64,000 bases of DNA from Protoeuglena noctilucae (GCA_958009085.1 OY253672.1:124001-188000), one strand, 5' to 3'. Positions 183 through 27,640 are shown, numbered from the stretch's first letter. Notes: generated from the letters alone by a model not told the origin. Translations and numbers: made by a program.

Positions 183-1913
183 ATGGGGCGGTCGTGGCGC
201 TACCTGGTCGCGCTCCTCGCGCTGGGTGCGGGCCTGCGCTGCGCGCGTTCCTTTCACGTGACGATCGCCGCGTCGGCCGAGGGCAGATGAGCGACTCTGC
301 GACATTTGTTCCCCCCTGACCCGCCGCAGTGTCGTGCGCCGGCTGGGCTCTGGGGTGCGTGCCACACGGGGGTCCGGGTTCGCCACGCGAATGCGCCGCC
401 CGGCGGCACCCGATGGTCGCCCGCGCCGGCCCTCCGGCTGATGGCGCGAGGCGTGTCATGCTGGCTAGGATTCTGCGCCATTGCCTCCCTCCGCTCCGCG
501 GCCTCGCAGGCGTACATTCTATGACATTCTGGAAGTGTCGCGGTCGGCCGACGAGGCCCAGATCAAGCGGGCGTTCCGGAAGCTGGCGATGCAATATCAT
601 CCGGACAGAAACCCTGGTGAGCGCGGGGCCGGTTTCCCGGCCCCGGAGGCCCTGGATGCCCCGGTAAAGGCGGCCTGCGTGCCTTCCGCCCTTCAGGGGA
701 CGAGAGCGCGGCGAAGAAATTTGCCGAGATAAACGAGGCGTACGAGGTGCTGTCTGACCGGGAGACGCGCGCGATCTACGACCAGCACGGGGAGGAGGGG
801 GTGCGGCGCCACCGGGCGGGCGCGGGGCAGCAGCAGCAGGGCTTCCCGGGGGGCGTGCAGTTCGATTTCGGGGGCTTTTCTTTCAGCTTCGGGGACGACG
901 CGGCACAGAAGGAGGTCAAGGGCGACGACGTGGTGGTGGAGCTGTCCGTGACGCTCGAGGACCTGTACAACGGGCAGGAGTTCGCCCTGCACCGGGAGAA
1001 GGCCGTGTTCGTGGAAACGTCGGGCTTCAGGCGAGGGAGGGCCGGGCTGGCGGGCCCTCGGCTTGCCGAGCGAGCGCTTTCGCATGCGCCCATGTGCGGC
1101 CGCGCGCCCCTCGCAGGCAGTGCAACTGCCAGCAGAAGATGGTGACGCGCCAGCTGGGCCCGGGGATGTTCCAGCAGTACACGACGACGGAGTGCGAGCG
1201 GTGCCCCAATGTCAAGGCCGAGACGCGGGGGGAGGTGCTCGAGGTCCACGTCGAGCCCGGGATGCGCGAGGGCCAGGAGATCCGGTGCGGCGCTCGCGGC
1301 GCGGCATGATCGGAGTCCTCCGGCGCTGCCTGCCCGCCGTTCCCGAGACGACGCGTGGGGCTCTGCGCCCGCCGCAGGTTGCGCGAGGAGGGCGAGCCAC
1401 ACCCGGACGGGGAGGCTGGGGACCTGCGCTTCAGGCTTCGGCAGGAGCCGCACCCGCGCTTCCGCCGCGAGGACGATGACCTGCACTTCGACTTGCCGAT
1501 CACGCTGACCGAGGCGCTCGTGGGCTTCTCCAAGGCCATCCGGCACCTCGACGGCCACTGGGTCGAGGTCACAGAGTCCGGTGAGCGCGCAGGGTGTCGA
1601 GGAACCCCGCTCTCCAGCCGGGCTGCGGCTGCCACGAGCTCGGCCGCACGCCACGGGCAGGCGTCGCGTCGCGCAGCCACTCCTGGCACCGGGTGCGACC
1701 CCACAACCAACGAACGCGGAACCCTGACCCCCCGCGCCCGTCGCAGGCGTGACGAGGCACGGCGAGGAGCGCGTCGTGGCGGGCGAAGGTATGCCCATTC
1801 ATGACTCCTGGGGCAACTTCGGCGACCTCCACATCCACTTCCAGGTGGCGTTCCCCTCGGAGCTGACGCCGGCGCAGAAGGCGCAAGTGAGAAAGCTCGG
1901 GTTCACATACTGA
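183..1913 (+). CDS. ERDJ3: ER-luminal DnaJ co-chaperone (ERdj3/DNAJB11-like), multi-exon
   Basis: Spliced model gives a signal peptide ([23 protein letters not shown]) and a J-domain ([38 protein letters not shown] motif). It continues with a G/F region, CNC...QLGPGMFQQ...CERCPNVK, and a C-terminal domain ending [25 protein letters not shown]...LGFTY*. Confidence 0.93.
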
Positions 1914-1938
1914 CAAAAGCGCGATGCCGGGCGCTCAA

Positions 1939-2912
1939 TCACGACTCAAGGATGGTTTTAGAGACATCGTCAAGCATTTTTTTTATGCCCGTAAGTGATC
2001 TGTATGGCCAGCGCTTAATGGCATGTTTCCGGCAGATGCGCTTGAGCACCGTTTGGCCAACATTAAGCTCCTTTGCAGCCTCTTGGATTGGAAGGTGAAA
2101 AACTCTTCGCAAGTCGCCGAGGGCAATTTTTGTCGAGCCTTCCTGCACAACAACAGGCACAATGGCCAGTTAGGTTTTGTCACACCGCTGATCATGTTTC
2201 ACGTATTCTCTGCGCACCTTGTCAATGCCGTGCGACCGTGTCCCACTGCCGAAAAGTGGCACCAATGCCGTTGCTTGCACCTCCACGGTCTGCAAGATGA
2301 GAAGAAGGCCTGAGCAACCTGCAATAAAAGCAACAGACGCTGTAATACAAACACACACGAAAATGCAGAGCTTACCTTTCGCGCTACAAGGCTGAATCCT
2401 TCCATTGATTTTTCCGCCACAACTTTATCGAGAGTGCTGTCCAGATTCACTGTGTCGACGTTTCCAAGGCTGCCCATAGACATTTCCTTCCATGTCTGTT
2501 TGGAAAAGTAAGCGGACAATTTTGTTATTACAGATAGCCGCTGATGATGACAGCGACACGCTGATACGCAGGTTCCTAGAATTACCTGGCATCCTTCCCC
2601 GGCCTTTCTGCAGAGCACTTTGCAGTTCACTTCCCCTGATGGCTCGGTGACAAGCTCCACTTAAATAGATGTAGTTCCTGCAAAGAGATGGCGAATTAGG
2701 GTGTAATGGTAGGTTGTGATCACGTGAAAGCACACAAAGGATGGAAGGATGAAAACAATTTGAGTTGAAGTCTTCTAGCTGTCTGTTAATACATGTGTGC
2801 GTGGGTAAGCACCAGAAGACAGTTATAAGCCACAGAGAGGCATACCTCGAATCATTTCGAGGGACGCACACGGGTGCCCTGTGGGTGCGCCGCACTCGCT
2901 TGTGTGTTGCAT
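1939..2912 (-). CDS. Small RWP-RK transcription factor with C-terminal RWP-RK domain (MID-like architecture); possible in-frame stop
   Basis: Last exon 2142-1939 encodes LGDLRRVFHLPIQEAAKELNVGQTVLKRICRKHAIKRWPYRSL. Upstream GT-AG exons join in phase: MQHTSECG...EMIR / ...VELVTEPSGEVNCKVLCRKAGEGCQ / TWKEM...GFSLVARK / TVEV...GIDK. Total about 180 aa. Start codon and exon 2 acceptor are uncertain. Confidence 0.85.
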
Positions 2913-3581
2913 CCCTCGCCTCGGCTTTGCTCTACTTCCGCTAAATGAAAACAACTGTTTAAAGAAATACTGCGGCATTTCTTTACAATCAACAAGCCGC
3001 AAAGCCTTCGTTAAACGAAGGCTTCTTGCCAGAGCCTTCGTTGCCACGCCGCACGCATTAGACGCGCTGCGGGGGCCGCTGTCTCGCCACATTCACACAA
3101 GTGAAAGGCAGTAGAGCTGCATTGTTGCTTTCGAGGAAAGGGAGCAGTGGACCAGGAAGGCTGGCCTGGGCTGGCTTGAAAGGCACGGGAAGCACCTGAA
3201 GGCTCGGAAAGCAGATTGCAACGATGCATTCTGTGATAGGTGATACCGAAAGACGCCCCTGCTGGATCGACAGGCTGCACATTTATTGCAGTGCCAAGTG
3301 GCATTGCGCAAATGGGCTCTGATTGCTGATATATGAGCCAAAAGTAATATATATTGTGTTAAGCAACGTGGCGTTTCGCCCACGGCACGTGTTAACTTCT
3401 GAAGTGTCATGACGGCTGCATGTACGCTCATCGCCACTTGGCAGTGTCTGCCTTTGTATAACTCGCATTCTTTGCTGGCGACAACACTTTTCAGATACCC
3501 CTCTGTACTTAGTGAAAGATGTGATGACATAGTTGGTGTACAATGCTGCGTCGCAACTGAAATTAATATTCATGCATGCAG

Positions 3582-5035
3582 AAACCAAGGCGACGCCACG
3601 GAGCCAAGAATTGATGTCATTGGCCTCTGACATCGTCTGCATTACCCAGTCGGAAAGCAAGGTTTGTCAGTACAATTAATGTCTTTGAGCACTGAAAGTG
3701 CGATGTAGTTGAGCCTGTCTTCTCCGTTGCTTTGCAGGCCAAAAGTAAGGCTGGATCTACTGAAAAGTATAACAAGCGTGTTGGAAGTGATGATGCTGAA
3801 CAGCTAGACGGACACCCGGTGCGAGCCTTTATCTGATTTTCAGGATTACATTATAAATAATGTTTGTTGTAAAAAAAGAGCAATGTATCCCTCGCCTTGT
3901 CCGCAGACCATGACGTCCATCGCTACATGCTTTGACATGCCAATTGAGGAGGCGGCAAAGAAGCTTGGCGTCGGAGTAACTGTCTTAAAAAAGCACTGCA
4001 GGAAGCTTCAGATCGAGCGATGGCCATACAGGTGGTGGCACACTACTACGGACAACTTTGTTTGCAGATATCAACCGAGAACGTTATCTATATTTCTACA
4101 TGCAGAAAGCGAGTTGGTGTGAGAAAGACAATCAAGCAAATCACCAGTGAGGTTGACAAAATGGGAAAATCATGCCTTCCAAGTCCTTTGGCTCTGCAGC
4201 TTCAATGGCAAGTTCTGTTGACGCAACATCTAGCACAATTGATATCCTGCGGTTTTTTAAACAATCCTCACCCTCTTTTTAACCCCTTTTGTAACCTTGT
4301 GACCGCAGGGTCTCTGAGAGGACTAACACCACCTCGTCTTCGCAACAGAAGGACAGGTACCTTATTCTGCACGTCAATGCAGCAAGCTAATTGTATCGCT
4401 TAATAATTTATAAAGAAGGAAATTTTAGTTTCCCCCCCTTGTCTATGCAGTGAAAATAAAAACGATTTAGGCACGCTAAACGCCTCGGACCATGAAGTCT
4501 TGTCCTCACCAAGTAAGTTTTCATGCCCTTTAAGCTGAAATCTGACACATATCTCTGGGTAAATAATGTTATGGTTAATTTTACCTTGGGTCCTTGTTCT
4601 CGTCAGAATTACTTCAAGAGGAAAATGAAGAAACGACATCGGGCCTTCTACTTCCATTTATTCCGCCACACTGTGATACACCCTTTTCTCGTCAGCTGGC
4701 AAACCTTGAGGGACAGATGTCAAACAGTCCTGCCCAGCTCCCAGGAACGGAGGTCGTAGCAGCAGATTTTCTTTTTGCTGAAAATCTCTTCAACATCCAG
4801 TGAGTGGTGCTCTCGACCGTAATCAAACAATATATTTCCGCTTTCCACAAATGTACCACTATAATATATCAATACATCTCATTTGCAGGTTGGGAATCGA
4901 CCATCAAGATATACAATTTGACACCCTGCCTAAGTGCGACGAGAATTTTGCGCAAGAAGGTGAATAAGCAAGACAATTTGTTATCATGCAGACCAAACAA
5001 TTTTAAAGCATTTAATTGCAGTTATTGCAACATGA
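3582..5035 (+). CDS. Second RWP-RK transcription factor (central RWP-RK domain, multi-exon; true start probably further upstream)
   Basis: [40 protein letters not shown], then an intron (~4032-4105), then KRVGVRK, completing RWPYRK. In-phase exons can be chained upstream ([14 protein letters not shown]...) and downstream to TGA at 5033-5035. Confidence 0.8.
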
Positions 5036-5176
5036 ATATCACTTTGTGCATCAGCCACTCCACGCACCAGTTCAAGTGACTGCAGCCTGTGCCCGCTGCC
5101 GATCTGATCCCGCTTCGATTCAAACGTGACGTCCATTGACAGTTTCCATTTTCATTCCTAGCTGGCTAGCTGCCTC

Positions 5177-6454
5177 GTCACGCCGGCCCCCGCAAGTGCA
5201 CGCCGCTGCCACCCGTCGGCCCCGCGCCGGGGTGCCACGTTGAAAGCAGCCATGCCTCCCTCGAGGACCGAGACGCGTCGTGCTCGATCGGGCCGCCCGC
5301 CGTCGACCTCCCTGCGCGTCAGCCAGCGCGACGCCTCAGTCACGCCGCAAACGCATGCCGGGCGGCCCGTCTCGGCGTCCGCCCGCCCCGCACCTGCCCG
5401 CGCCAGCGATTCGATCTTCTGCAGGACCTTCTTGCCCAGCCTCACTCGGCTCTCGGGGGACGACACGAGCACCGGCGCGCCGCCGCCGGCCTTGGCCCCG
5501 GCCACGTCGGCTGCCCATGGGGACTCGGCGGGGGGGGGCGCTGCGAGCGGGGGCAGGGTGGGTCAGGGGCCGCCGCTCGCAGCATGGAGCCGCGGGCCAC
5601 CGCCCGTGGTGCCCCTGGACCGGCGCTCACCTGCGCAGGACACGCTCCCGGGACGACAGCGGGCGCGACTTGAGCGGGTACCCCCCCGGCGGCGTGCGGG
5701 CGCTCCGGGGAGCCGGGGCCGGGTGCGGGGCGGCGGCCGGCGGCTGCGGCCGCGGGGGTGCCCCCCCCGGCGGCGCTGCCCTGCCCGCCCCGCCGTCGGC
5801 GTGGGTCGCCCCCCCTCCCCCCAGTGCCAGCATGCGGCGCACCTCGCTGGAGCGCGGCTGGTTGATGACGGCCTTGACCGCCGGGGACAGGTCGCCCGCG
5901 CGGTAGTGGGCGGGGATGTGGGAGTGCGTGCTGTAGGCGCTGANNNNNNNNNNNNNNNNNNNNNNNNNNNNNNNNNNNNNNNNNNNNNNNNNNNNNNNNN
6001 NNNNNNNNNNNNNNNNNNNNNNNNNNNNNNNNNNNNNNNNNNNNNNNNNNNNNNNNNNNNNNNNNNNNNNNNNNNNNNNNNNNNNNNNNNNNNNNNNNNN
6101 NNNNNNNNNNNNNNNNNNNNNNNNNNNNNNNNNNNNNNNNNNNCACCGTGAAGATGCGCCCGTCCGCCTCGGGCGTGGGCGGCGCCACAATGCCCCTTGC
6201 GTTGCGCGTGCGCTTGAGCTGCCTCACGAACCGCCGCACCGCTGCGTCGGGGGGCGGGCGGGCCCCGTCGGCCACGGCGCCCCCCGGGGACCCCGGCTGC
6301 TTCTCCGCGTCGAGCTTGCGCGCGTGCAGCTGCGACGAGGACACGAGCGAGAAGGGGAAGAGGAACTTGGACGTGTAGGACGTGAAGGCGCTGAAGCTGG
6401 CCCTGCAAGCGGGAGAGGAGGCGTGGTCGCTGGGCCCTCACCCACATCACCCAC
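5177..6454 (-). other. 3' exons of an unidentified GC-rich protein-coding gene (gene X), 5'-truncated at the DnaJ duplication and interrupted by an assembly gap
   Basis: Minus-strand exon-like frames ASFSAFTSYTSKFLFPFSLVSSSQLHARKLD..., ...HSHIPAHYRAGDLSPAVKAVINQPRSSEVRRMLALG... and ...SPESRVRLGKKVLQKIESLARA are bounded by GT-AG sites. No family recognised, and continuity across the gap is unproven. Confidence 0.5.
5944..6143. other. Assembly gap (200 N)
   Basis: Run of N; same length as the second gap, so probably a placeholder size. Confidence 0.99.
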
Positions 6455-9400
6455 CTGTACAACGGGCAGGAGTTCGCCCTGCACCGGGAGAAGGCCGTGT
6501 TCGTGGAAACGTCGGGCTTCAGGCGAGGGAGGGCCGGGCTGGCGGGCCCTCGGCTTGCCGAGCGAGCGCTTTCGCATGCGCCCATGTGCGGCCGCGCGCC
6601 CCTCGCAGGCAGTGCAACTGCCAGCAGAAGATGGTGACGCGCCAGCTGGGCCCGGGGATGTTCCAGCAGTACACGACGACGGAGTGCGAGCGGTGCCCCA
6701 ATGTCAAGGCCGAGACGCGGGGGGAGGTGCTCGAGGTCCACGTCGAGCCCGGGATGCGCGAGGGCCAGGAGATCCGGTGCGGCGCTCGCGGCGCGGCATG
6801 ATCGGAGTCCTCCGGCGCTGCCTGCCCGCCGTTCCCGAGACGACGCGTGGGGCTCTGCGCCCGCCGCAGGTTGCGCGAGGAGGGCGAGCCACACCCGGAC
6901 GGGGAGGCTGGGGACCTGCGCTTCAGGCTTCGGCAGGAGCCGCACCCGCGCTTCCGCCGCGAGGACGATGACCTGCACTTCGACTTGCCGATCACGCTGA
7001 CCGAGGCGCTCGTGGGCTTCTCCAAGGCCATCCGGCACCTCGACGGCCACTGGGTCGAGGTCACAGAGTCCGGTGAGCGCGCAGGGTGTCGAGGAACCCC
7101 GCTCTCCAGCCGGGCTGCGGCTGCCACGAGCTCGGCCGCACGCCACGGGCAGGCGTCGCGTCGCGCAGCCACTCCCACAAGTGGGAGATTCACCGCGTGC
7201 CGGGACCTCGATTTTCGCGTACCGCCAGAACAGGGCCACAACAAGCCCGGTACGCGGTCGGTACGCGGTTTCCGGGGCCGCGGCCGCGTACCGCGGGTAC
7301 AGAGTCGTCACCGCCCTGGTACGCTCCTTTGGCGGTTTCAGCGCTCCAGCGGCGCCTCTCGCCCCGCGCATGCGCTCGCTCGTGGGTTTGAATACTAATG
7401 ATGCCGGCGCGCGAAGCGGGGCGGTCGCCGGGCGGCTCTGGAGACGGCGACTCTGGTTGCAAGGACGTGCGCGTTCCCGACGGCGACGCCGGCATCCGCA
7501 GGGACTGCGGGGGGTTCCTGAATATGAGGAGGTACCGCCGGTGGTTCCGGCGCCCTCTCGCCATCACTTTTCAGTCGACGCCACGGGTTTCCTGCGCTCT
7601 TGGAGGCGCTGCTCTGGCGAGGGGCGCGCGGGGACCGATATGGTCCAGCACACTGCGGGTCGTGTCGGCGGTTGATGGAGCGCGGCGTGTTTCCCGAGCC
7701 CATGAGCCCGGTCGAGGGCGCAGCGACGGCGGGGGCGGTGCATAGCGGATGGCATCCGACAGGCGCGTCTTGCGCGGGTTGCGCGCCGAGCCTGTGACTG
7801 CGCTGGAAGCTGGAAGCGTAACGGCATGCATCCACATACCCATGACTCGGGCAAACCCAGCCGCGCGCTCGGAGGGGGACGGCTGCACGGAGACGTGGAT
7901 CGCAGGCGGGCCCGAGGGACGCGCAGACGGACGGCTGCAGCACCTGACGAGTGCTATGGGCTTAGAGAATGTATCGCGATGTCGTAGCAAAGGCATGGAA
8001 GGGTACTGAGCGCTGCGGGCCCGCTCATCTGGGGGCAAGCTGATGCGAGACGCGACGCGGCGCTCGAGTCGCGCCGGCGCTAGCCAGTGGCCCCCGTGTG
8101 TTATTGAAGGATCCATGAGTTGCAGAAACACCGTAGTTTTGCCCGTCATTTGCCCGAGAGGCGCGGGGACGCGCTTGCAACTCCAATCAAATAACGGCAC
8201 CGAGGGTGCCGCGATGGAGATCCTGATGGTGGGAGATTGGTATGTGGCGTGTAAGCAACTCGTTGGGTGAAGGGCTAGATCACCAGCGCTTTCCGCAACC
8301 CCTCCGCAACCTGGGAGCAGGCTGGCGTTCCCTGACGCCCGTGTCGGGCGCCAGCTCGCGGCGTTTTCGGCGCGCAAAGGCCCAGCCGCACCTGCAGACG
8401 ATGCACAACCTACTTCTGCAGGTGTGGCTCGAGCGCCATGTAGGTCACAGCGTTTCCCGCCCTCTCGGGCGGGCGGCGTGTTCAAACGCAGCTCGAGTCT
8501 CCCGGCCCCGGGCGTGTGAGACGAGGGGATCCGGCCGCGTCGGGCTGTTTAGGCAGGGTGCCCACAAGGAGCCTTCCGGGGGCCGTTCTCGGCGTGCGCG
8601 AGGTATCTTGCCGCCTCCAAGCTACTGATGAGTTCAATCCCGTGCAAACTGCGTCGTCCGCGAGGTCCCGGAGCTGACGGTGAGCCACATCGCCGGCTCT
8701 GGACATCGGCCTGCCGGGGCCGCGATGGCCGCTCTCGCCCCTCCGAATGGACCTCAAGTGCTTTGTAGTAATGCTCTGCGCTGGATCCCTGCAGAATCCG
8801 CCGCTATCTCGCAGCGACTGGCGGGGCTGGCCTGGCTCGCAGCATACCCTGGCGATTGCGGCTACGATGCACTCAGGGCCCGCGCCGCACCCGCAGGAGA
8901 CGGTGGCTTACGTTCAGTCAATGCTGTGTCGCCGGTAGAGAGCCTCAGGTGAGGCCGCCTGTGTTGGCGTGTGGCCGATGCCAGGACGCAGTGGCTGAAG
9001 TGGCGTTTTCGTGCCGTCGTGGCGCATGCTGTGTGTGCTCTGGTGGCACGCGATGGGCCTCGCGTCATGGGCCTCCGTCAGCCGGCCGGCTCATGATCAG
9101 CCCAGCACCGTGCCGGTCAAATGTCGGTCACGCGATCTGCGCTGGACGCAGGACACCTGTCATGCTGTGAGCTCCATTCTCAGAGGCCGTGTCCTTGCTC
9201 GTTGCATCCAGGGTTGAGCAGAGGTGGCGGCACATGTGTTGCCGACCTGCTCTGTGCAGGCCTCAGAGCAGGTCGGCGTGCGAGAGGTGAGTCTGGTGCC
9301 TGCAGCTGTTCGCATAGGCAACCTTTGCCCCTTCTTCTGCAGTGCATGTCGATAAATGACAGACGCTGCCATTTGCGCTTGACGTGTGTGGCACGCCTAC

Positions 9401-11357
9401 TGTCGTGCGCCTGTGCAGCTGCGCCATGGCAGGTAGCGGAAGGGAGACGCTGACATGTTGCGTGACGGTGCACCCTTTGCTTGCGGATTCATGGGTTGCG
9501 GCTGCCTTTCACATGCTCCTGGTCTTCCCTCGCGGCGCACGGCCGTGGTGACCGCCCCTGGTGCATGGTGCAACTGCAGGCCGGCAGTTGTCGGAGGCCG
9601 AGCCTTGGCTGCGTGTCATCTCGGCTGTCTTCATTTCGCACCCTTCCAGACCATGCTTACTCGGTGAGCGTGGCCCACGCGCCTGCGCTGGCGTGTCGCT
9701 CAGCTGGGCCAGATGCATGCGAGGTCAGGAGGCTGCTCCAGTGGTGTGTGGCAGCGGCCGTTGGCAAGCGTGGTCCTGCATGCTCTTTCAGAGTAGCTGC
9801 CTTCAGCACGCATCCGTGTGTGCCCGGCCGTGCCTTGCGATGCAGTGTTGGTGGCTTGGGCGCTGACGCCACTATGATGCACTGGCAGACCTGCTGGCAA
9901 CATGGTCCGCAGTTATGCTGCTCACGCTTCATGCCCGCAGAGCATTGGGCAGGCTTTCACCTGGCGGTGGGCTGCGAGGTGAGTGCATGTTGTGAGCGGC
10001 ACGTCGCTGTAGGAGCTATAACTGCAGGGGAGGGCGCTCAACTTCTTGTCATCACTGCGCTGCTTTGCACCACACCTCTTGCCTCGCAAGAGTTCGGTCT
10101 GCAAGCTTCATGCTGGGTGTAGTACGCGCGGCTGCTGCTGCTGCCTGACGTGTGCGAGGTGTGCTGATGGGTGGGCGTTTGTGGGCTGAACTGGGCTTGG
10201 CATTGGAGATGGGCTGGTGGGCATGTTGAGTGTGTTGTCGCCAGCAGGGCCAAAGCCTAAGACGGTCCCCGTGTTCGTGCGCACAGCAACTGGGAGCCCA
10301 GGTTGTGAGCGGGGGACGGACGTGGCGTCGAGTGGCCCGAGCATTCGCGTGGGCGGTCAGACGAGGGCTGCCCGGGAGGTGTACGAGTGCTGCTGCAGTG
10401 CGTGCAGGTGGGCGGGTGCGAAGGCCTAAGACCAGCGCCATGGGGGCCTCCCGGCTGCCAATGCGCTTGCCTGCGCTGTCTGTATGTTATGTTATTATGT
10501 TATGTGGTATGTAGGATATGATCCTTGCGGCTGCCTTGCTGCCAGGCTTGTCTTGGTTGCTCGTGGCAGTGCAGCGGTGCAAAGTCGTGGGGCCGCCAGT
10601 TGCGGTGTGGCCGGGCCCGGTGGCCGATGCGCTGGCCTGCGCCGTTTGTGTGTGATGCCGAGGTGCTGCCCTGCTGCCTGTGTCTTGTTGTTACTTTGGC
10701 GTGCAGCGTTGCCGTGCTAAGTCGTGGGGCGCGTGGCGCGGGCGGCCTGTGCGCCTGCTGCGCGTGCCGCGCCTGCCTGCGCGCCTGCCGTCGTGGTGGC
10801 CATCTGCGGCCATTTATGAGTTCCTGGCCCTCCTGGCCCTGGTCACGTACTGACACTGGTTGAAGAGCAGTACCTACAGCGCATCCGCGGCCCGCAGCAG
10901 CCGAAACGTTCCACCAGCGTTCCAGAACCGCGTACTCGCGTTGTTCCGCCCGTGTTCCGCCCGAGTTCCCACCGCCTTGTACGGCCTGCGTATGCCTGCG
11001 TACGGCCGATGTACCGCCGCTGTACCGCCGTTGTTCCCTCCGCAGGCGTAAAAGTCGTGTACCGCGCCGGTACGCGGCGAATCTCCCACTAGTGCCTGGC
11101 ACCGGGTGCGACCCCACAACCAACGAACGCGGAACCCTGACCCCCCGCGCCTGTCGCAGGCGTGACGAGGCACGGCGAGGAGCGCGTCGTGGCGGGCGAA
11201 GGTATGCCCATTCATGACTCCTGGGGCAACTTCGGCGACCTCCACATCCACTTCCAGGTGGCGTTCCCCTCGGAGCTGACGCCGGCGCAGAAGGCGCAAG
11301 TGAGAAAGCTCGGGTTCACATACTGACAAAAGCGCGATGCCGGGCGCTCAATCACGA
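6453..11357 (+). pseudogene. 5'-truncated duplicate of the DnaJ gene (copy of 961-1944), split by a transposon
   Basis: 6453-7175 matches 961-1683 and 11095-11357 matches 1682-1944, including introns; one SNP seen (1739 C vs 11152 T). It lacks the signal peptide and J-domain exons. Confidence 0.95.
7176..11094. mobile_element. Non-autonomous CACTA/EnSpm-type DNA transposon, 3,919 bp, 2-bp TSD (CC)
   Basis: Left end CACAAGTGGGAGATTCACCGCGTGCCGG; reverse complement of right end CACTAGTGGGAGATTCGCCGCGTACCGG (28-bp imperfect TIR). Dense GTAC-centred subterminal repeats at both ends. The empty site GCCACT-CC-TGGCACC at 1676-1690 shows CC duplicated at 7174-7175 and 11095-11096. No transposase recognised. 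Confidence 0.9.
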
Positions 11358-11835
11358 GTCAGCATGGCCTGACTTTGACCTTAACCAAGTGCCCTACCCA
11401 AAAATGAAGCTAATTGTATCGCTATTCGCCAGAAGAAGAGTTGATTTGGAAAAGTCTGTGCGTCTGCAAACAACTTTCCGAAGCATTTTAGCTTAAGCGA
11501 AGAGAGAAAAGTAAGTTCAAGCTTGCGCTGCGGACACAAGGGCGACCGCGCCTCATCCCATGAGCCTTGCAGAGCCTGCTTTGGTGAGCAACGCGGTCTG
11601 AAACCTTCTCATCTGGAGTTATACGTGCAACACGAAATGTTGACGCGGAAGACGAATGGCCCACATCAACCGTTCGTCTTCCTCAATCCTGCTACGAGAT
11701 TGGCTTCGCGAAAGCTGCACTTATTGCTTCTGCAAGCTTTTTGCGTTGTGCACGAAGTTTAAAATAGACATTGGAACGTTGAGGCTCATATTCTACCCTA
11801 ATATGAATTTTTTTTTTCCTTTTCAGGTCAAGGCC

Positions 11836-14800: not shown

Positions 14801-17800
14801 ACGTGGCGTGTGACTGTTGGACTTAGCCCATTCTTTTCGTTTCCTGGCCGTACCAGTGTTTTTATTGACGTCGTCGCATTGCCAGACGCCTCAAGCGCGC
14901 AGGCATTGCAAACTAAGCTGACTGAAAGCAGTTTCCTAAAGAGTTTCGAGGGCACCACAAACGGCATCTTAGATATCAAAGACGTCCAAATATCTGGATT
15001 TGACACGTTTGCACAAAAAGCGGGCGTGACCTCACAGCCCATTTTAAAATGTTCCCTCCTACTTTCAAACGGCAACGCAATACCATTTGGGTCTTTGTCA
15101 TCTCTTTTCATTCGCAATTCCATATCGACCTCTCTTTCCCTCCCTATGACAAATGTTGTAATAACTGAAGCCCTTGCTTCTAATCAAGACTTGTATGTAA
15201 GCGTAGAAATAAGTGCTCCAGATTACATATCTACTCAAGAGATATATTTTGCTTTATTAACTGTGGACTCTTCCTCATGGATAATGTCTTGGACAGACCA
15301 GTACCCGTGGGTGCCCTACACGGAGGTTGCCATTTCGGGCACACCCTCTTTTTACTGGTATGGAATGGAAGACAACGATATCTTATTTATTAAGGGCTCA
15401 TCTGTGAGTTGTGTGGTTGCAGAGCCATATTGCCAGGTTCAGGTGTTAAAAGCCCTGATGGGCCATGCTAGCACAACGGCAAGAATTCAGCTCGAGCAAA
15501 TAGACGGTGAATTTACATTTTCAGGCCAAATAAAGTATCTTCATAGCACTGCCCAGGCAAATGACGTCATAAAATCAGTGCTGCAGGCTGACAACAGCGA
15601 GTTTGCAGTCCTTTCTTCAAGCATATCGAAAAATTACACCTCTTTTCAGCCACCAAACGAGCCTTACTTCGCTGTGTCCATAACTGTCGAAACTAGCGGA
15701 AGTGTGCTGCTGTCGGATAGCAGGGAAAACGAAGAAGAAATAAAAAAGGCTTTACAAGTTGTTATCCCTTTTGTGTCGCTGAGTGAAATGGAAGTCCTTA
15801 CTGCTCCTTGCTCATCCTTGATGTGTTCCCGTGTGTCGATTGGAACTCTGCCAGACGTCACTGGTGCTGTTAATGTTGCCCAAATTCTTGGATCTTCATT
15901 CCAGGCTGTCCACGACAGCTGCATGTCTGTCATTGCTGGGCATCTAGAGTATGTAAATTTTATAGGAATGCAAGTTATTTACGATTCTTGGGTATCGCCC
16001 GTGATTTCAACTTCTGCATCTGCTACTTTGCTACATAATGCTACCCCCGCTCTGCTAAGCGACGTTTATTCTATTTGCAAAAAACTGTTCTCCGTTGTCC
16101 TTCCCGACTACCAGTTGTGGAGAGTAAGTGTTAATGATCTGAGTTACACAGAGAGTCACGCAACATTCTCATGTAGTCTGGCTCAGATCCCTGCTGCTGT
16201 TTGGGACTCATCCATCTTGGACACGACCACTGCCGCAATTTTGTTTGCCTCGAAGCAGATTCCGTCTTATGGGCTTGTGTCTCTCTCAGATGTCCAAGTA
16301 CAGGGTTGTAATGTTGACAAAACGACCATGCCAAACGGTGACCATATATACGACGTCTGGAACAGTCCCACTGCGTCTTTCCAGCTTGCACTAAATCGTG
16401 CCACTTTCAATGGCTCATTTGCATTTTCCATTGCTGAGCAGAACCAAATCCTTCTAGCCTTGTCAACGCACCTTGGCTTGCCTTTGCCATCTCTGGGAGT
16501 TACTAGAATACAAATGCATATACCTGACGAGCAGCTGTTTTCTGACTCGGCCTCATGGGTCGTCGATAATTCTTCCTCGACATCAACGTATCTGGTAGAT
16601 GAAGTTGTAAGTGCTGGCTCGGAGATGTATTGGAGCGAGTTTCATGATGTGGCTGCACATGTCACTCAGGCACTAAAAATGTTACCTGCGGACATATTCA
16701 ACAATTACTGGGAAGGAATTGAGGTCTCGTTTGTCTCCCCTGTCAGTATTGGTTTTCCTTCTCGAGAAAGCTACATTGAGCTGGCTTTGTCGCTGGAGGT
16801 GTGCGGAAGCAACTTGGAACAGCAAAGTGCTTGTCAGGACATAATGCCGCTAGTTTGTCCCCCTTCTTTGCCTGTGAAGTGCTTCCCATTTCAGGTTTCT
16901 TGCAACATATCAAGTGTAAATGGCAATTGTGCAACTATGGATACAACTGTAAAGTTCATTAACAACCCCGTTGAGGCCGCTACGTTTTCAACTGATATTC
17001 AGATATATCTTTACAAGCTCATGTCTGTCAAACCGGTTGCAATTTCTGACTTTTCGTCTGTGAGGGTCATTACATGGCCAATTGCCTTTCCGTTCTTAGA
17101 AATAAGCGGCTCAGTCACTTGCGTTACAGATGTCACAAGTGATATGTTTTGGCTCAATCGGTATATATCAAATTCAAACATGGCGATGTCAATAGCAGCC
17201 TACCAAGGAGAGCAAATTGGGTCTGACACAACAAGTGTTACGTTAAGATTCCATCCGCAGCACAACTTAGGTGAATACCAGGAAGAAGTGCAGCAATTTT
17301 ATTCTGTAATGGCTAGTTTGGCAGCATACATGGAATCTTTCCATGTTTGCTCCCTGCAGTTAATACAGCCTGCAATAATTGTCGATCCCAACCGGCCTTC
17401 TAAACCATCTGTGTCTTTCCTGTCCAATAATGTGAAATCGAATGATTCAGTGATTGAGTTACTCACAGCGCATGGGTTGCCGCACGTTCAGAAATCACAG
17501 ACGAACATCTTACCATATAATACAACGTCCACACTGGTGTCCATTGCAAGTGTGGGTAGTTGGTCAACAATATACAGCATTAAGCAAGCATTCGCAAGCA
17601 CTGCAAACATATATGATGTTGCAACAAGTCCGCCATTCGTTTCTTGGCCCATCGGGTACAAGCCTACGCCTACCTTGTGTAGGACATCTGTCACCATGTC
17701 TGGATTCCCCATTCTTCCTTGGACAACAACTTCCGACGTCATGCTTGGAGATGCTCTGTCTACATTCGGTGAAGCGGCTGTTGTAAAAGTCAATGTTTTG

Positions 17801-20800
17801 TCCAGTGTTTTGGCTGGGGATGATAAAGACGAAATTGAGGCAACCGTTATATTTCAAAAGACGCCTGGCGTTTCCTTTATCTCAGACATGGACAATATCT
17901 ACACATCATGCAATCAGCTGCTCCAAATGTTGCAAAGTAGCACTAGCGTGTACAGCAAGAGCCTTCCCAGCTATGTTGTTTCTGCTGAAACTCAAGTTAC
18001 TGTTTGGCCAGGCGTGGATCGATCGTATGACAGCCTTGATTTTCAGTACGGTTTCATTGATTTTTCAGGCTACATCAGACAAAATGGGACTCAAGTTAAT
18101 GAAGTCGTAGAACTTGTTAAAAAATACAACTTGGTCGCCATGTACAACACCAGAATCGACACATTTTCTGATTCATTGAGATTGTCTCTTTTTGATTTTC
18201 AAAGCGAAAGTGATTCAGATTATGCTGTCTCTCAAGTCTGGCAGGCACTGTCTCTAACCAATTTCAGTGCCATCTCAGGCCTTTCTTTCTTAAAAATGTC
18301 CTCGAGCCTTCAGTCCTGTAGTGCAACATTGTTGGAGGCAAGCACGTCTGTTAAATTGTACATGAATGTTGGTGCTGACAGAGATGCTTTTGTTGAAGGA
18401 AGTAATGTCTTAGAATACCTGGCAAATACGATTGCCGGTAGTTATAAAACGTCTTCTCGTGTAACAAACGTCACGTCTGACACTGACGGGATTCTCTACT
18501 CTATCCGTGTCTGTAACATTGACGCATCAGATGCAATCACAATCAAAAATCAACTCGGGAACGCGACAAGTGCTTTAAAAAATGATGCCACGGTAAGATG
18601 TGCATCACGCTTTCACAAGGTCATTACTTTGTCACTTTTTTGCAAAACAGTTTTCAACCTTCCATTTCCGCAGGCTCTGCAAACATTGACACAGTTCACA
18701 CGTGATACGCTAGTACAGAGACTGGAGGTAAGAACGTACAGCACAGTGGTCTTGCCGGAGACGCAGGAGACATCATATCTCTACTCCTTCACAGCATATG
18801 TACAGAGGGACACCGATGATTGGTGGAGTATCCTGGATGTGGCAAGCTTTGTTACATGGAATGTTCTTAGCCAAGACACCTATTTTGTCAGCATGGTAGA
18901 GCAATGGCAGATTTATGGCGTGGTCAGCAGTGTTAGCAGCAAATGGATGCAGAATGCATCTGGGACAAGCTCATTTGTGACAGCGGTAACCGTTAATGTG
19001 CAACTTAGTGGAAGCTCGCCAACACCGGAGTACATCACCTTAAGCCATGAGCAACTCTGCAATTTGCAAGAGTACCTGCATAACTCATTGTACGCTGCCA
19101 GCCTTGCAGACCTTGCCATTGTCGACGCAGTTGTATGTAACGTCGAGTTCACTTCCACGTCCCAGGCCCCATATGTGTCTTTTACAGCGTCGCTTTACAG
19201 TGCCGACCTTAGTTCTCCGACAGACACCGAGGTTCAATGTATCCAGGAAGCGATGGCATGGGGCATGGGTGCCGGGACTGGAGTGTTTGACATAAGCATA
19301 ACAGTGCTTACAACGTCGCCTGGGTGGATCTATGTCAGCGTAAATATCAGGCTTGCAAGGCTGGACCCTTTCGATGCAGCATCGCAAGCATTGGATCTTT
19401 TGACTCATAATAACGTCTTGACCCTTTTCCCGTCAGCGAAGTTGATTAATATTGTTGATTTCCCACTCCCAAGCCCGCTTCCAGAAGCGTTTTACTCTGC
19501 TACCTATGTCTCAACCTCTAACGTTGACGCTTTTGTACTAATAAACAAAATAACTGACACTTATCCCAACAGCCTGATCTTCTCATACATGACATATGAA
19601 CAAAACACGACGGTCCAGCTTATGCTGTTACCTGCAGACATGCATATGTTGGCTGATGAAGGTGATGGCATTGGAATGGAATTAAATTCATTAGTTTTGT
19701 ATGACACCGTTATCAATGACGACAAGTTTCAATACATGGGCAGCGTTAACGTGAATTCTACTTATAATGAGTCTGTGTCCTCCTTTATAATTATTCGAAA
19801 TGCGCTGGCAATTTTGCTGAATATTCCCCAGAAACTACTTGTTGTCAGTGTAGATGCTTCAACAGTCACATACCAGATGATGGAAGGTTCGTTTTTAGAC
19901 CCTTTGACGGCAATCTCATCGTGGAAAAGTTTGCAGTTGGGAGACGTTCTTTGGAGCTCTATCCCTTTGTGCTCAGGGAGCTGTCACGACATTGTTTCTC
20001 TTACGCCCGCGTTCCCTTTTTCTTTTCCTGCATCGTGCATGGGCAGCAGCACAGCTGCAAATATGAACACAGCAGCAATTTCATGTGCTGGGCAGGCATC
20101 TGTGTCTGTAGTAGTGAAGATAGCATGTATGGACCAACAATGAAGCATTCTTGACGTGCAAAACTTCGTAATTCAGATGAAGACGACCCTTGCGAACATA
20201 ACTCAGGCAAATGTACCAGAAAAAAATGTGTTTGTGAAAATCCAAGTTTTGCCTGAGCAGCAGGAAACTATTGAGGACTGCACCAGCCTTTGTAGTCTCG
20301 GCATTCATGTGATTGATTTAACATTTCTTGAGTCTGCATGGGAAGTGTCAAGCGCAATGTCCAAAACTTTGCAAGTTCTCAACTCCGAGACTGGCGCACG
20401 CTTCACAGCAACTGTGGAGGGCCTGACGTACTAACCCAGCATAACTTTCGATCAAGCCTCTCAAGTGATTGGCTCAATCAGCTTGGTAAGGATGCATCGA
20501 GCAATAGCGTGCTTTAGCTTTACACCAAAAATTTTGCGCTTGTAATTTCTGTCTCTCTGAAAATTTGGTTGCAGGTTTCCAGGTCTGCTTGGGCGGACAG
20601 TAACACAAGTGATATCGTCGTTGATTTGCAGCAGACATTGGCCAAGCAACTGGGGTTAAATTCAAGTTTAGTCGCGTTATATCCAACAATTGCTCAAAGA
20701 TCTCTTCTGAGATCTTCTTTGGTTTTTAATGTACGTATTACGTGCACAAGTGACGAGGTTGCTCTGCAAGTGTGCAACAAACTAAGCACAGAGGCAGATC

Positions 20801-21186
20801 TTTTAGTATCAAAAATGACTTCGAAGTACATTGACTTACAAGATGCAACTGTTTCATGTTCGTTAAGGTAAGCGTTAAGTCTGCTTTCAAGTTGTATCTC
20901 ATAACTTTCTTCAATTTTTAACAATAACAATAACCATTCTCTATGCAGGACCGATGCATTTATCCCAACTCCAAATTTGAAAAGTTCGTGGTCGTCCCTA
21001 CTCATCCTCCCATGCATAATTATGGCGACCTTTGGAACGCTTTCGGTCTTCATTGCCATCACCCAGCGTTTCTGCGTCAGAGCAAATGCGGAGGTGAAAA
21101 ATGTTTCCTCTAGCTCTGTTGGATACTATACATTCGCTCCACGCCCAAGTTCAGGACCACGAGAAAGCGATTTGGGGACAGAATAG
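11836..21186 (+). CDS. Giant type I single-pass membrane protein (~2,770 codons, ~13 exons) with repeated SEA-like/alpha-beta extracellular modules; two in-frame stops
   Basis: Signal peptide MKPTAMLLILLVGLVLSLATICSCGG. About 12 short introns chain in phase around a 6-kb open segment (14102-20143). C-terminal hydrophobic helix LLILPCIIMATFGTLSVFIAIT precedes a ~40-aa tail. In-frame TGA at 20141-20143 and TAA at 20432-20434. Confidence 0.8.
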
Positions 21187-21212
21187 AGAGTCTGGTCGGA
21201 TGGCTCCTCTCC

Positions 21213-23304
21213 GTGCGGGGCAGCAATGGCACCATCACCTTCGCACGAGTACTCGCCAGTGCCATGAGTACCGAGAACCTGGACTTCCTCCTCAATCTCC
21301 TGCACACGGCCGACCGGGTCAACGACCTGGCTGTGACGGTCGCCGAGGACTCGACGCCGTTGCTCAGCTACATCATCAACCACCTGGAGCCCAGCCACGG
21401 AGTGCAGGTCCTTCGCGGTGAGTCGACATCGGCTACGATGATCGCTCTTGATGTTGGCATCAGTAGTCTATCAGGTGCATTTCTGCAAGATGCGCTCACC
21501 GGAACTGAACAGCTAAGCTCTCTCCCCCTGCACACAGCGGTGTTGGTGCGCCTGTGTGAGCTGAGGAGCCCTGCCCACGCGAAGGACATCGCTGCTCTCT
21601 TGACGGCCCCGGATGCTCAGTGGAACACACCGTTTCACCACGCTGTCATGGCGGGTAGCCCCGAGATCCTCCGCATGCTGCAGAGCTGCCTCATGTTCTG
21701 CGTGCACGCCTACGGGGTCGCGTGCAATCCATACGTCATGCAGAACTCCCAGGACAGAGTGCCGGCGGACATGGCGGGCACCATTGACTGGGAAGGAGAC
21801 TCGGGGTTCGCTCAGGTGTGGAGCAGCATAGGAAGTGTCAAGTCGCCCTGCAGTCGCCCTCTCCAGAGCACGCGCACGCGAGTCGGCATTTGCTGCTCAC
21901 AACTTGAGGACCACCGACCAGCCTATCAAACAGTGTGCAAGCCCTGCTTGCAGAGACAGATACAATCGCGTGCTCTGGCGACCTTCTTCGGCTTGGTGGG
22001 AAGCCTCGACGCGCAGCAGCAAGGTGCGCACCATGGCACGTTGCGGATCGTGTGTGCCACTTGGTTCTGGAGGGATGTGGCTGTGTTGTCTTCCTGTAGA
22101 TGTGCAGGATCCCTGCTGAGGCAAGACCGCAGCTAAGCTAACCAACTCCTTCCATCGACCCAGTGCGCGCAGAGCCGGGGCACGCACCAGGTGACGTGGC
22201 GCTTCAGATGGCCAACATGGTCCCTGACGACGACTTCGCGACAGTCTGCAACTGCGGGCTGTGGATCGAGCAGCTGGCGATGCATGGAACGGACATGGGC
22301 GCGGCCGGTGAAGCCAATTTCGTCCGCGCCTTGGTCATCCCAGCCATGCAGGCGGTGAGTCGTGAAAGCCACCAAGCGCTTCCCTCATATTGCGGTGTCG
22401 TATGCATCAACCGGGTCAGATCAAATTGCAAGTCACCCCGTCGTGTGCCCCACGCAGCTGCCGGAGCTTGGAATGCTGACGTCGTCGTCCCGCATGACCT
22501 GGGCGCACGTCGCCGCGTCGCTCCAGAACGATTACGTGGGAGCAGAGCTCGTCACGGCTGCCGCTGCGGGCCAGTGTCCCATGGACCTTCTGGTGCCTGA
22601 AACCGGCGTCACCGCTCTTCACCTCGCATGCCGTGCAGGCCATGCTGAGACAGGTCGGTGTCTAGTGACTGCGTCGGAGCGTACACCCTGCATCCTTACC
22701 AATTTCAAGCGGCTGAACGTTTCTGGTTTCCCTGGCGAGGCGTGCTTCCATCGCGACGACCCATCGGCTGCACATGCACCCGGCATTGCGCTTTGAGGGC
22801 CGTGTGACTAGCAACGGTCCAGCGAACACTCCTCGCAGTTTCGGCACTCCTCCAATCCGGTGCGAGCCCCACGGTCCTCAGTGCTGCCGGCATGGCACCC
22901 ATCCACGACGTGTGCTGCAACGCCCTCTTCATACCCAATGCCGTCGAAGTCGTGGGCCGGCTCCTGCAGCATGGAACCCCCCCGCTGCCACAGCGCAGCT
23001 GCTGTCGAGGACGCCCGCGTTCTTGCCATCCTGCGCCACACTGAGGGGAGCCGAGCGTCGTATGCCCATGGCCTTTGTCCTGCAGAGTGTCCTGCGCAGT
23101 GCGGTGAGGGCCATCTTCGCATCAAAGCATGTTACCTTCCTAAAGAATCCGTTGTGATTCTGTAGCCCCGTCTCCTTCACAGGCCCAGGGACCCAAATGG
23201 GGCCAGCACGGATGGCAGCACACCGTGACTGAGCTGGTGCAAGCGCTGGGACACAAGAACCCCAAGGCGACGATCCGAACCCTGCTGCCCGGGGTGGATT
23301 TCTG
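21213..23304 (+). pseudogene. Ankyrin-repeat protein gene, apparently frameshifted and possibly 5'-truncated
   Basis: Ankyrin motifs DAQWNTPFHHAVMAGSPEILRML, ETGVTALHLACRAGHAET/VSALLQSGASP and GMAPIHDVCC...VVGRLLQHG lie in spliced exons. The ankyrin-like frame appears to shift at the C7 run near 22977-22983 and near 23224. Confidence 0.65.
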
Positions 23305-23449
23305 ATGATATGGTGGAAGAGACGTGCTGCGACGGTGGCGAATGCATGCGTTGTGTGTGGCGTCGGAGCCCAGGCAGCATAGTGCAAGGCAGCTCTTGTG
23401 AATCCAACAAGCTGAGAAGCATATCAGTCAATGTCACAAAGGACTTTGG

Positions 23450-24392
23450 CACGCTGGTGGAGAGGAGGTTCTTGGGGGCTGCAGCCTCCCATCGGTGTGC
23501 AAGGGACAGGGGCCCCAGGGCGCGCTGCTGCAGCAGACCCGGGGCACCTCGCAGGGGCTCGCCGCCCAGCCGCAGCGGCTGCGACGCGCCCCTGCCTCTG
23601 GTCGCCGCACCGACGCCGTTGGGCCCAAACTGAGCCCCAGCAGCCTGCCCTTGTGCCACACCCAGCACCCCCCGACTCCCCCGGGCGCCCGGCCCTGCTG
23701 CCGTCACACTCCCCCAGCCACTGCCGTCCCCAAAGTCTCCGAACGATCCCCACGCCTCGTCGTCCGCCTCCCCTACCAGCGACGCATGCAGGTCTTTCCC
23801 CGCTGGGCCCTTCCGTGCCCCCTGGCTTGCAGGCGTGGGTATGGGCGCCTTGGGAGCGATCCCAGACGCTTCCCTGCGCCTGCCTCCCTCGTCGCTCTCG
23901 CGGCTCGCCGGGCCCGCGGCAGCAGCCAGCGGCGACCTGCCTGCCGCCCCCGGCCCCAGACCCAGCGCCCCAATGTGCTGAGACAGGGGTGCGCCTGCTG
24001 AGTCCAGTGCTCCCGTGGCCTGTCCTGGCCTGGGCCCCGCCTGCCCACTCCCAGCAGCCCCGCCAGCCTGCCCACCCGCGCTCCCCGCGCTCGCGGCCCC
24101 AAGCATTGGCATAGGTTCCGGCACTCGCCCGCCGGGCTGGGCTGGCCCGACAGGCCCCACCTTCTCCTCGGGTGCTGTGGCGGCGTCCATGGTCCTGGCG
24201 TTGGCCTCCAGCGCCGCCGCCAGAGCCGCGTCACGCCCTGGTCTGCGTCGATGGCGGCATTGGCAGCGGCGGGCATGACGCGCTGGGCGAGCTCGCCGGG
24301 GGAGTAGAACTCCAGGGTGGCGGCGAGGGCGCGGAGGGACGCTGGGAGGGGACGCGGGAGGCCACGTCACGCAGCACACGAGGAGGTGAGCC
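23450..24392 (-). pseudogene. Duplicated 3' fragment of SCYL1 (last exon plus part of preceding intron)
   Basis: 23503-24392 aligns with 44290-45200, with an 18-bp deletion, a 4-bp frameshifting deletion near 24232 and scattered SNPs. Diverged homology continues to ~23450. Confidence 0.93.
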
Positions 24393-24466
24393 ATGGGCAT
24401 GGGTCACACCGACTGGCGTGTTCATCCGTTCTTCCTTCTTCAACACCTAACCTATGCGTGACCCCA

Positions 24467-26749: not shown

Positions 26750-27640
26750 TTCCGATCCACGACTTCACGCAGCGAGGCCTGCCCCGGCTCCGCGGGCCCA
26801 ACCTAACCTCAACGTTCCCAGGTGCGCCATGCACCTGCCCCACGCCTTCGACATGTCGTCGGGGACGCGCCTCCCTCGACCAGTCACGTCCACGCCTCCC
26901 GAAAAGAGCCCTGCGTCCCGACAGAGGAAGCTAAAGCTCGGGCCGCGGGGACTGGGGGGTCGACGCCCCGTGCTCACGCGCCAGCCACGCCGCGGTTGCA
27001 AACAGCGCACGCAAACAGCGACGCAGAACGACAACGGCTGACCTGCCGCGCGGGCTGCGCTGTGTTGGCTTGCAGACGTGAGCTCGCCGATGCCGACAGC
27101 GCTCTCTCCGAATCACACGCAAGATGTCGCGATCGCGGGGCGACGGTGCTGTTTTCGAACCTTTCCTCGGTGCCAGTCATCCGTGCCTGAAACAAATGGC
27201 GGGGCATCTCGGCGCGCGACGTCCGCCGGCCCGCCCATGGACGCCCGACTTGTCGCCGGGAGCCTGCGATGCGGATTCTTTCGGGCGCGAGTAGGCAGGC
27301 GGAGGGGCCGCTGTGAAAGAGCGCTGACGCGCATCCGGGCGTCCGGCGAGGGCGCGACTGCTGTGGAGGACTATATACTGCCGCTGGGACAGGCGAGCTC
27401 CCCTGTGCGGCCACGGGATGCGCGCGGGCGAGGCCTGGTCGAAATCTGACTTTGTAGCCGCGCGCGAGGACCGACGGGTCGCGCTCCGGTGTCCCCCGTG
27501 GCTCGGTGCTGATATCGTTTCGATCGCGACCTCGGCCGGCACCTTTCCCGCCGCGGTGGTGGCGGGGACGCGAAACTTAGGGCACCCTGGCGGAGCGCGC
27601 GGGGACGGGCGCCCCGGGACCGCTCCCCGTCAGCGGCAGC

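Follow-up and report, generated by a model that had tools for sequence, protein, structure and literature searches.

Two low-GC cassettes behind one DnaJ gene: a candidate mating-type-like region in Protoeuglena noctilucae

A 64,000 nt stretch of DNA from Protoeuglena noctilucae (GCA_958009085.1, OY253672.1:124001-188000), here called the window, was found to carry the 3′ end of a DnaJ gene twice, with a different cassette of low GC (guanine plus cytosine) content behind each copy. Cassette A contains two RWP-RK genes, and cassette B contains a giant gene for a predicted single-pass surface protein and an ankyrin-repeat gene. We suggest that these are two old, recombination-starved cassettes of a compact mating-type-like region that would lie behind one DnaJ gene. 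We estimate a probability of about one half that the metagenome population and culture sample S3 truly have A and B in tandem on a single chromosome. A form that carries B without A exists, and it is the major form in culture sample S4. A mating-type role for the region falls, in our judgement, a little short of evens. The region is best described as a green-algal mating-type-like locus with unusual architecture, for which the observation is confirmed and the interpretation partly supported.

The repeats were identified by self-BLAST and a repeat finder. A direct repeat of 723 nt at 100% identity occupies 961-1683 and 6453-7175 on the plus strand and starts mid-exon, and a second match aligns 1682-1955 with 11095-11367 (274 columns, 98.5% identity). 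Copy 1 belongs to a full-length type I/II DnaJ gene (183-1913, plus strand) that has a signal-peptide-like start, a J domain and a DnaJ_C domain (Pfam DnaJ, E = 7.6e-15; DnaJ_C, E = 2e-14). Its start codon was picked by eye, its stop is the TGA at 1911-1913, and its last intron, located by reading the sequence, is short (about 1580-1745). Copy 2 begins mid-exon at 6453 and comprises the DnaJ 3′ part (6453-7175), a 3919 nt segment (7176-11094) that copy 1 lacks, and the end of the last intron, the last exon and 31 nt of 3′ flank (11095-11367, plus strand). Unbroken identity between the copies stops at 1944 and 11357, 31 nt past the DnaJ stop. An initial annotation of the window had reported a DnaJ 3′ end of about 1 kb present twice, with identity ending 31 bp after the stop in both copies, and both statements were borne out. 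An exact 40-nt DnaJ pattern had zero matches in JGI metagenome contigs, so that source provided no independent assembly for comparison.

Beyond the shared DnaJ sequence, composition changes abruptly. The window is about 70% GC and the flanks are 70-78%, whereas cassette A is 46.5% (1956-5157) and cassette B is 44.7% from 11368 to 21100 and 60.6% from 21101 to 23499. The boundaries of these islands are sharp and both islands lie about 25 GC points below the genome, in agreement with the earlier description of a different, abruptly low-GC cassette behind each DnaJ copy. GC content at third codon positions (GC3) is 0.93 in a DnaJ exon and the CCT-gamma gene and 0.45 in the main exon of the giant gene, with values of 0.52-0.72 in the RWP-RK and ankyrin exons. 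A lack of recombination has been proposed as the cause of low GC content in green-algal mating-type regions (PMC8557840). By the same argument, a GC3 of 0.45 against 0.93 in a genome driven to high GC content fits a long absence of GC-biased conversion or recombination. The low GC content and low GC3 of the islands fit a sign of long-suppressed recombination.

Reads were followed as Logan contigs over 4600-24599, from one metagenome run (X2), two culture runs (X3 and X4, samples S3 and S4) and one RNA run (X9). Cassette A (1945-5081), whose right limit is set by the start at 5082 of a second context for a gene here named gene X, is spanned by a single 3224-nt contig (1915-5138) in X2, X3 and X4. 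Sampled words of A were all present in marine metagenome runs, from which the window may derive, and 96-98% of them were present in culture runs. The cassette contains RWP-RK domains at 1942-2169 on the minus strand (PF02042, 82.0 bits, E = 2.9e-23) and at 3808-4119 on the plus strand (70.1 bits, E = 1.5e-19). As both pass the Pfam gathering score (29.3), both are members of the RWP-RK transcription factors, and the claim that A carries two RWP-RK genes holds. The genes form a divergent pair on opposite strands. RWP-RK gene 1 (1939-2483, minus strand) is small, about 127 aa in a three-exon model made by eye, and its C-terminal domain ends 16 aa ahead of the stop; its last two codons and stop (1939-1944) fall inside the flank shared with DnaJ copy 2. 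In RWP-RK gene 2 (3808-4400, plus strand), the domain exon ends in RWPYR, and an intron of about 84 nt placed by eye restores RWPYRK. The introns of both cassettes were read by eye only. DnaJ and RWP-RK gene 1 are convergent with stops 25 nt apart, so that their 3′ untranslated regions (UTRs) must overlap in antisense, and the boundary of A sits two codons ahead of the stop of RWP-RK gene 1.

The volvocine protein MID is small, about 150 aa, with an RWP-RK domain at its C-terminus. One gene of A had been called MID-like; the small size and C-terminal domain of its model made by eye are a resemblance only, and the word-based and HMMER searches brought out no homology to MID. A HMMER search with RWP-RK gene 1 returned 3409 matches with E values up to 0.001, and a word-based search with it returned nothing. 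The nearest relatives of the RWP-RK genes are unnamed environmental proteins at 40-57% identity, of which 10 small ones examined had uninformative names. The RWP-RK domains of another prasinophyte were too divergent for assignment (PMC13213038). Words from 1700-5400 were found in RNA runs at fractions of 0.36, 0.25, 0.17 and 0.17, which are not specific to A proper and give no evidence of RWP-RK expression.

Cassette B (11368-23499) is spanned by a single 12,256-nt contig (11328-23583) with 0 differences in X2, X3 and X4. This identity across a metagenome and two cultures points to very low diversity inside B. The giant gene (11836-21186, plus strand) is about 9.3 kb long, with a predicted signal-peptide exon at about 11836-11906, several short exons, a main exon of 6042 nt (14099-20140, 2014 codons) that contains 17 N-X-S/T sites, and a stop at 21184-21186. 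Hydropathy peaks at 2.63 near 11851, where the sequence is signal-peptide-like, and at 2.37 near 20998, in the single predicted membrane span (20989-21060), which is followed by a short tail. The protein matched 0 Pfam families. Among 8000 scored candidates from a word-based search of 5.8 billion proteins it recovered only itself, its best score in the ESM Atlas was 0.81 (chance level, all <0.9), and no relative was found in JGI metagenome contigs or viral contigs. BLASTP detected no internal repeats, and AlphaFold2 without an alignment gave no usable fold for 400 residues (pLDDT, the predicted local distance difference test score, 32.7). Contigs of RNA run X9 do not cover 11937-20607 and cover little of 20608-23275, which says nothing on expression.

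Downstream lies the ankyrin-repeat gene (21240-22793, plus strand), with repeats at 21114-22793. Its Pfam Ank matches, in two open reading frames (ORFs), are below the cut-off, and it matches ankyrin proteins in the PDB (best E = 4.3e-8). The initial annotation had placed a giant single-pass surface protein and an ankyrin gene in B. The exon, the predicted signal peptide and single span, and the ankyrin matches agree with this; the likeness to FUS1 extends to size and topology only. One RNA contig contains a CT..AC joint at 21380-21497, on the minus strand inside this plus-strand gene, and there may be an antisense transcript here.

B is closed by a 3′ fragment of a HEAT-repeat gene (23500-24392, minus strand) that consists of the last exon and part of an intron. 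Self-BLAST identified its source as the intact 3′ end at 44287-45200 (minus strand; 915 columns, 96.1% identity), relative to which the fragment has deletions of 18 nt and 4 nt that shift the frame. A diverged 3′ fragment had thus been recognised correctly; the name SCYL1 that was attached to it was not confirmed. A search of the HEAT-repeat gene for SCYL1 gave one weak HEAT match, three ORFs had no PDB relative, and its Atlas matches, all <0.9, were alpha-solenoid proteins. The fragment is mosaic: X2 and X3 carry the letters of the full copy at 23597-23603, X2 also at 24039, and X4 agrees with the window, while 22 bases that the full copy has in addition are missing from every run. This mosaic may reflect gene conversion between the copies or bubble-popping in the contigs.

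The A and B contigs, present in all three DNA runs, both begin in the DnaJ end, and we conclude that the DnaJ-A and DnaJ-B arrangements are both real. In X2 and X3, the DnaJ piece that they share is assembled as a separate contig whose 723 nt correspond exactly to 6453-7175. The neighbouring contig has the DnaJ 5′ exon in the 30 letters ahead of 6453, and this holds for all four runs. As contigs end at 6453 even though the same DnaJ exon lies upstream in every run, there must be a second, different entry at this point, and the window supplies a candidate for it in an intron of gene X. At the other end, 839-nt contigs that stop at 24392 were found in each of the three DNA runs, and the loose end behind 24392 continues into the full copy of the HEAT gene. 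The fragment and the full copy last differ 85 nt before this position, so there must be a second exit here in all runs. In the window, the 24392/24393 junction joins the fragment to the 3′ UTR of a choline-transporter-like gene. As the fragment and the contig end at 24392 are found in all three DNA runs, including X4, we assign both the fragment and its junction with the choline-transporter gene to the chromosome that carries B. With the right join on the B chromosome itself, only the 6452/6453 junction is peculiar to the tandem. The initial annotation had proposed that B was copied with stubs of both flanks into the A chromosome, which does not agree with the presence of the right stub in all three runs, among them X4, where A is minor. 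It was also silent on the truncation of gene X at 6452/6453, the sole tandem-specific junction. The left repeat is 100% identical, and the HEAT fragment is 96% identical and frameshifted. Thus, the left join is young and the right join is old.

Run X4 yielded a 3027-nt contig that comes from the DnaJ 5′ part, passes 6453 without a break and reaches 7175. In the same run, depth was 24.7 for A and 121.5 for B at equal GC content, and the joint from 7173 to 11095, which skips the additional segment in the last DnaJ intron, had a depth of 34.5. Given this unbroken contig linked to B and A at one-fifth of the depth of B, B without A is the major form in X4, and A therefore shows presence/absence variation. 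The depth comparison proposed in the initial annotation gave a different picture in the other DNA runs, with A and B at parity in X2 (17.8 and 17.2) and in X3.

Only the 3′ part of gene X (5082-6452, minus strand) is in the window; its start codon and upstream exons are missing. RNA supports introns at 5310-5393 and 5540-5631, and no Pfam family was matched. A run of 200 N at 5944-6143 stands for 1018 real nt within the gene, and is bridged in all four runs. Beside it, the window has errors at 5504, 5530 and 5549 (two bases and one 1-nt indel), where every X2 and X3 contig and some X4 contigs differ from it; the assembly is poor in the stretch of about 80% GC around the gap. From 5082, the 3′ end of gene X is found in two contexts, one leading into cassette A and the other into sequence of normal GC content that is absent from the window. 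Depths were similar, in X2, X3 and X4 respectively 17.8, 89.3 and 24.7 for the A-linked context and 14.9, 82.6 and 35.6 for the other. In RNA at 5108, the non-A context accounts for 27.2 of a depth of 31 (about 7:1), as expected if the A-linked copy is promoterless. In contrast to B, the 3′ UTR of gene X has 4 differences in 152 nt (5141-5292) in culture run X4.

The segment in the last DnaJ intron of copy 2 (7176-11094, plus strand), here named segment Z, is 64.8% GC and matches no Pfam family. Both forms of the intron, with and without Z, are present in all three DNA runs. RNA contigs align to Z with five GT..AG joints that bound exons of 36-84 nt and run off at 9578, 9663 and 10745, and DNA contigs of all three runs branch at 8533. 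When the exons were joined at the RNA-supported introns, no open frame was obtained. As the RNA contigs align with GT..AG joints yet run off as loose ends, Z probably holds fragments of genes that are whole elsewhere.

In the arrangement that we favour, the tandem would consist of a whole DnaJ gene, A, truncated gene X, truncated DnaJ, segment Z, B and the frameshifted HEAT fragment, in that order. The 6452/6453 junction would be a recent, non-homologous one that put A between perfect direct repeats of 723 bp. The second form, major in S4, would lack A and have B behind an intact DnaJ gene whose last intron contains Z. Either it is the parental B haplotype, or it would have arisen when A looped out between the repeats, with the loss of about 6.3 kb that comprises A and the gene X fragment. 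The two low-GC islands are best explained by long existence as alternative idiomorphs and a recent fusion, which agrees with the perfect repeat. We infer, beyond this, that A and B were formerly alternative idiomorphs, that the RWP-RK genes would determine mating type in the manner of MID, and that the product of the giant gene would act at the gamete surface.

A number of observations weigh against this interpretation. For the tandem, the window comes from a metagenome assembly and could be a chimeric join of two haplotypes. The positions that the initial annotation had singled out for mapping gave a mixed result: the gap at 5944-6143 is bridged and contigs end at 6453 and 24392, but no contig with 31 letters on both sides of 6452/6453 or 24392/24393 was among the matches listed. 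The gene X contigs of X3 and X4 quit the path of the window after 6422, and one of them extends for 7.2 kb in letters that are absent from the window. The 1:1 ratio of A to B also fits a heterozygous diploid, and, as contig depth is not a copy number, neither this ratio nor that of 1:5 carries much weight; contigs, moreover, hide variants. A genome with A only was not found in the three DNA runs, and if B is in every genome its low GC content is harder to explain than under strict allelism. For the mating-type role, nothing here shows sex, and the RWP-RK genes are no more than candidates for MID orthology. Neither homology to FUS1 nor immunoglobulin (Ig)-like repeats were found in the giant protein by Pfam, word search or the Atlas. 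B is not confined to a haplotype that lacks the candidate MID, as FUS1 is, but is found in each of the three DNA runs, even where A matches it in depth, an objection that would lose its force if the tandem were an artefact. The gene models in A and B have zero RNA support. Finally, the frame of the giant gene contains a TGA (20141-20143), with 2014 codons before it and 96 after, upstream of the membrane span. As the B contig is identical in three runs, this TGA is not a sequencing error; it could lie in a 69-nt intron (20109-20177, GTAGTA..TTCAG), be a truncation that removes the anchor, or be read through.

The alternative that survives best, which we consider unlikely though a serious contender, is that haplotypes A and B are in different cells or on diploid homologues and were joined at 6452/6453 by the assembly, so that the tandem occurs in no cell. 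Both haplotypes would then have a whole DnaJ gene, and the reading of A and B as two idiomorph-like alleles would still hold. An artefact of this kind would account for the equal depth of A and B in the metagenome, for gene X being cut at the join without its start codon, and for the contigs of X3 and X4 that leave the path at 6422, with X4 passing 6453 from the DnaJ 5′ part. The lack of a bridging contig among the matches listed, the window errors near the gap and 723 nt at 100% identity, as for one collapsed allele, point the same way, and strict allelism best explains why both islands are GC-poor. However, a chimera needs a node at 6453; the X2 and X3 contigs independently end exactly there, with the same DnaJ exon upstream in all runs, and only a second real context explains such ends. 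The point 6453 lies mid-exon, and the gene X intron and DnaJ share no sequence. The 7:1 excess of the non-A context in gene X RNA and the A:B ratio of 1:5 in culture, which does not fit a diploid, also speak against an artefact. In X2, bin arithmetic reproduced the bin 4600-5266 (20.8 computed, 20.9 given) and left about 3270 depth units to be explained in the bin 5934-6600, where our estimate is 2900-3400 with a contig across the junction and 2065-3070 without one. This arithmetic only leans towards a junction-crossing contig. A joint from 24227 to 5589 with 26 letters between, seen in X3 and X4, was set aside as chained GC-rich matches.

The case for a mating-type role draws on RWP-RK genes beside a surface-protein cassette, on a GC content that drops by about 25 points with GC3 halved, on the presence/absence variation of A, and on the precedents of the Mamiellales and MID. 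As to whether the MID candidate would be confined to one mating type, contig depth places A at one-fifth of B in X4 and at parity in X2 and X3. A gene restricted to the plus type would not be expected in all three runs, as B is, except if the tandem were an artefact or had arisen by a recent fusion. The flanks are likewise divided: the left flank, DnaJ, is shared, and the right flanks differ, with gene X for A and the HEAT fragment followed by the choline-transporter gene for B. The initial proposal that A and B are opposite mating-type alleles anchored at the same flanking gene therefore stands in part. The shared DnaJ flank, the low GC content, the RWP-RK genes and the presence/absence variation of A agree with it; that no A-only genome was found in the three DNA runs does not.

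It is improbable, in our view, that the region has nothing to do with mating type and is lineage-specific, fast-evolving or foreign accessory DNA in a duplication-prone spot, with neutral presence/absence of A. Such an origin would suit a giant protein with no relative among 5.8 billion proteins, in the ESM Atlas or in JGI metagenome and viral contigs, RWP-RK genes whose nearest relatives are unnamed environmental proteins at 40-57% identity, the gene fragments around B (gene X, DnaJ, segment Z and the HEAT gene), the presence of B in all three DNA runs and an organism for which sex is undocumented; against it, the low-GC genes have canonical GT..AG introns like those of the flanks, no viral relative was found, and RWP-RK and surface-protein cassettes with low GC content and GC3 and presence/absence variation are the pattern by which green-algal mating-type loci have been nominated (PMC8557840 and PMC6123790).

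The two islands are set in ordinary GC-rich DNA. The choline-transporter-like gene (24393-26764, minus strand; Pfam Choline_transpo, E = 1.6e-21; stop at about 24468-24470) is the first ordinary GC-rich gene to the right of B. Gene content (RWP-RK, CCT motif, isoamylase) fits a green alga. For the CCT-gamma ORF, identity reaches 82% with an unnamed JGI protein and no more than 61% with any named green alga or plant. Pseudoscourfieldia marina, at 57% GC (PMC13213038), does not agree with the window in composition; Prasinoderma coloniale does (69.8% GC), but the CCT-gamma search gave no identical or near-identical protein from a named organism. Two minus-strand genes, at 38108-41239 and 58232-58858, contain Mad3/BUB1 homology region 1, and the first also has a kinase domain; they are a pair of BUB1-like and MAD3-like paralogues. 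Self-comparison revealed 45-nt units, about 97% identical, that are repeated in tandem over a short stretch (51578-51761), and an Rfam scan of 1-26000 found nothing.

To our knowledge, there are no observations of sex for most marine picoplanktonic green algae, and we know of mating-type loci described in detail only in volvocine algae. If the interpretation favoured here is right, cassettes of 3 kb and 12 kb at one gene would make up the smallest mating-type region proposed in green algae, and would yield simple polymerase chain reaction markers with which to score mating type and ploidy and to follow sex in the sea. If both tandem and loop-out are also true, they would represent the first architecture for repeat-mediated switching or homothallism outside fungi and would give a direct view of idiomorph fusion. 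If the tandem is instead an artefact, it is a warning that metagenome assemblies can string two mating-type haplotypes in series.

In volvocine algae, the mating-type locus carries MID in the minus haplotype and FUS1, whose product has Ig-like repeats, in the plus haplotype. The region described here resembles it in having a gene for a putatively small protein with a C-terminal RWP-RK domain in one cassette and a gene for a predicted type I membrane protein in the other, and in its reduced GC content, gene fragments and rearrangement. It differs in scale, with cassettes of 3 and 12 kb rather than hundreds of kb, and in having two RWP-RK genes and, if the tandem is real, both cassettes on one molecule. 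The predicted surface protein is about three times the size of FUS1, with no detectable Ig-like domain or homology. The GC drop of about 25 points also exceeds that of volvocine mating-type loci, given as 4-10% in PMC8557840.

Among the Mamiellales, an RWP-RK gene is confined to the candidate minus haplotype in Ostreococcus and Micromonas (PMC8557840). These too are marine picoplanktonic green algae in which sex has never been seen, and their locus was nominated by low GC content and two divergent haplotypes (PMC8557840). Unlike the two small islands in GC-rich DNA found here, the candidate regions of Mamiellales span hundreds of kb, 450-650 kb on an outlier chromosome, with many gametologs. 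The alga studied here also stands apart from named mamiellophytes in its CCT-gamma, for which identity to any named green plant does not exceed 61%.

The homothallic Volvox africanus combines a genome of one ancestral sex type with the RWP-RK determinant MID (PMC8166075), and in the tandem proposed here a B-type chromosome likewise also carries A. In V. africanus, however, MID is in a multicopy array at another place, and the sex-determining-like region is about 1 Mb.

The closest structural parallel is fungal. In Chromocrea spinulosa, a split gene has direct repeats at its truncated ends, with a second mating-type gene and extra sequence between them, and intramolecular loop-out gives two genome types, in unequal proportion in one strain (PMC5608430). 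Similarly to switching in Chromocrea, and in Ceratocystis, direct repeats of 723 bp in a split DnaJ gene bracket the RWP-RK cassette, an arrangement that is valid only if the tandem is real, and A and B are found near 1:5 in one culture. The differences are that the Chromocrea repeats are 115 bp and the split gene is itself a mating-type gene, whereas here the split gene encodes a chaperone and both loop-out and mating role are putative. By this analogy, a green-algal counterpart of fungal unidirectional switching, in which the RWP-RK cassette loops out between the repeats and restores DnaJ, is conceivable, though we regard it as a long shot. Loop-out would turn an A+B genome, self-compatible or with its mating type determined by RWP-RK, into a B-only genome, and clonal cultures would become mixtures. 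Run X4, with the full-DnaJ-to-B form, both forms of the intron, and A at 24.7 against 121.5 for B, could be such a mixture, and a mixed culture would look alike.

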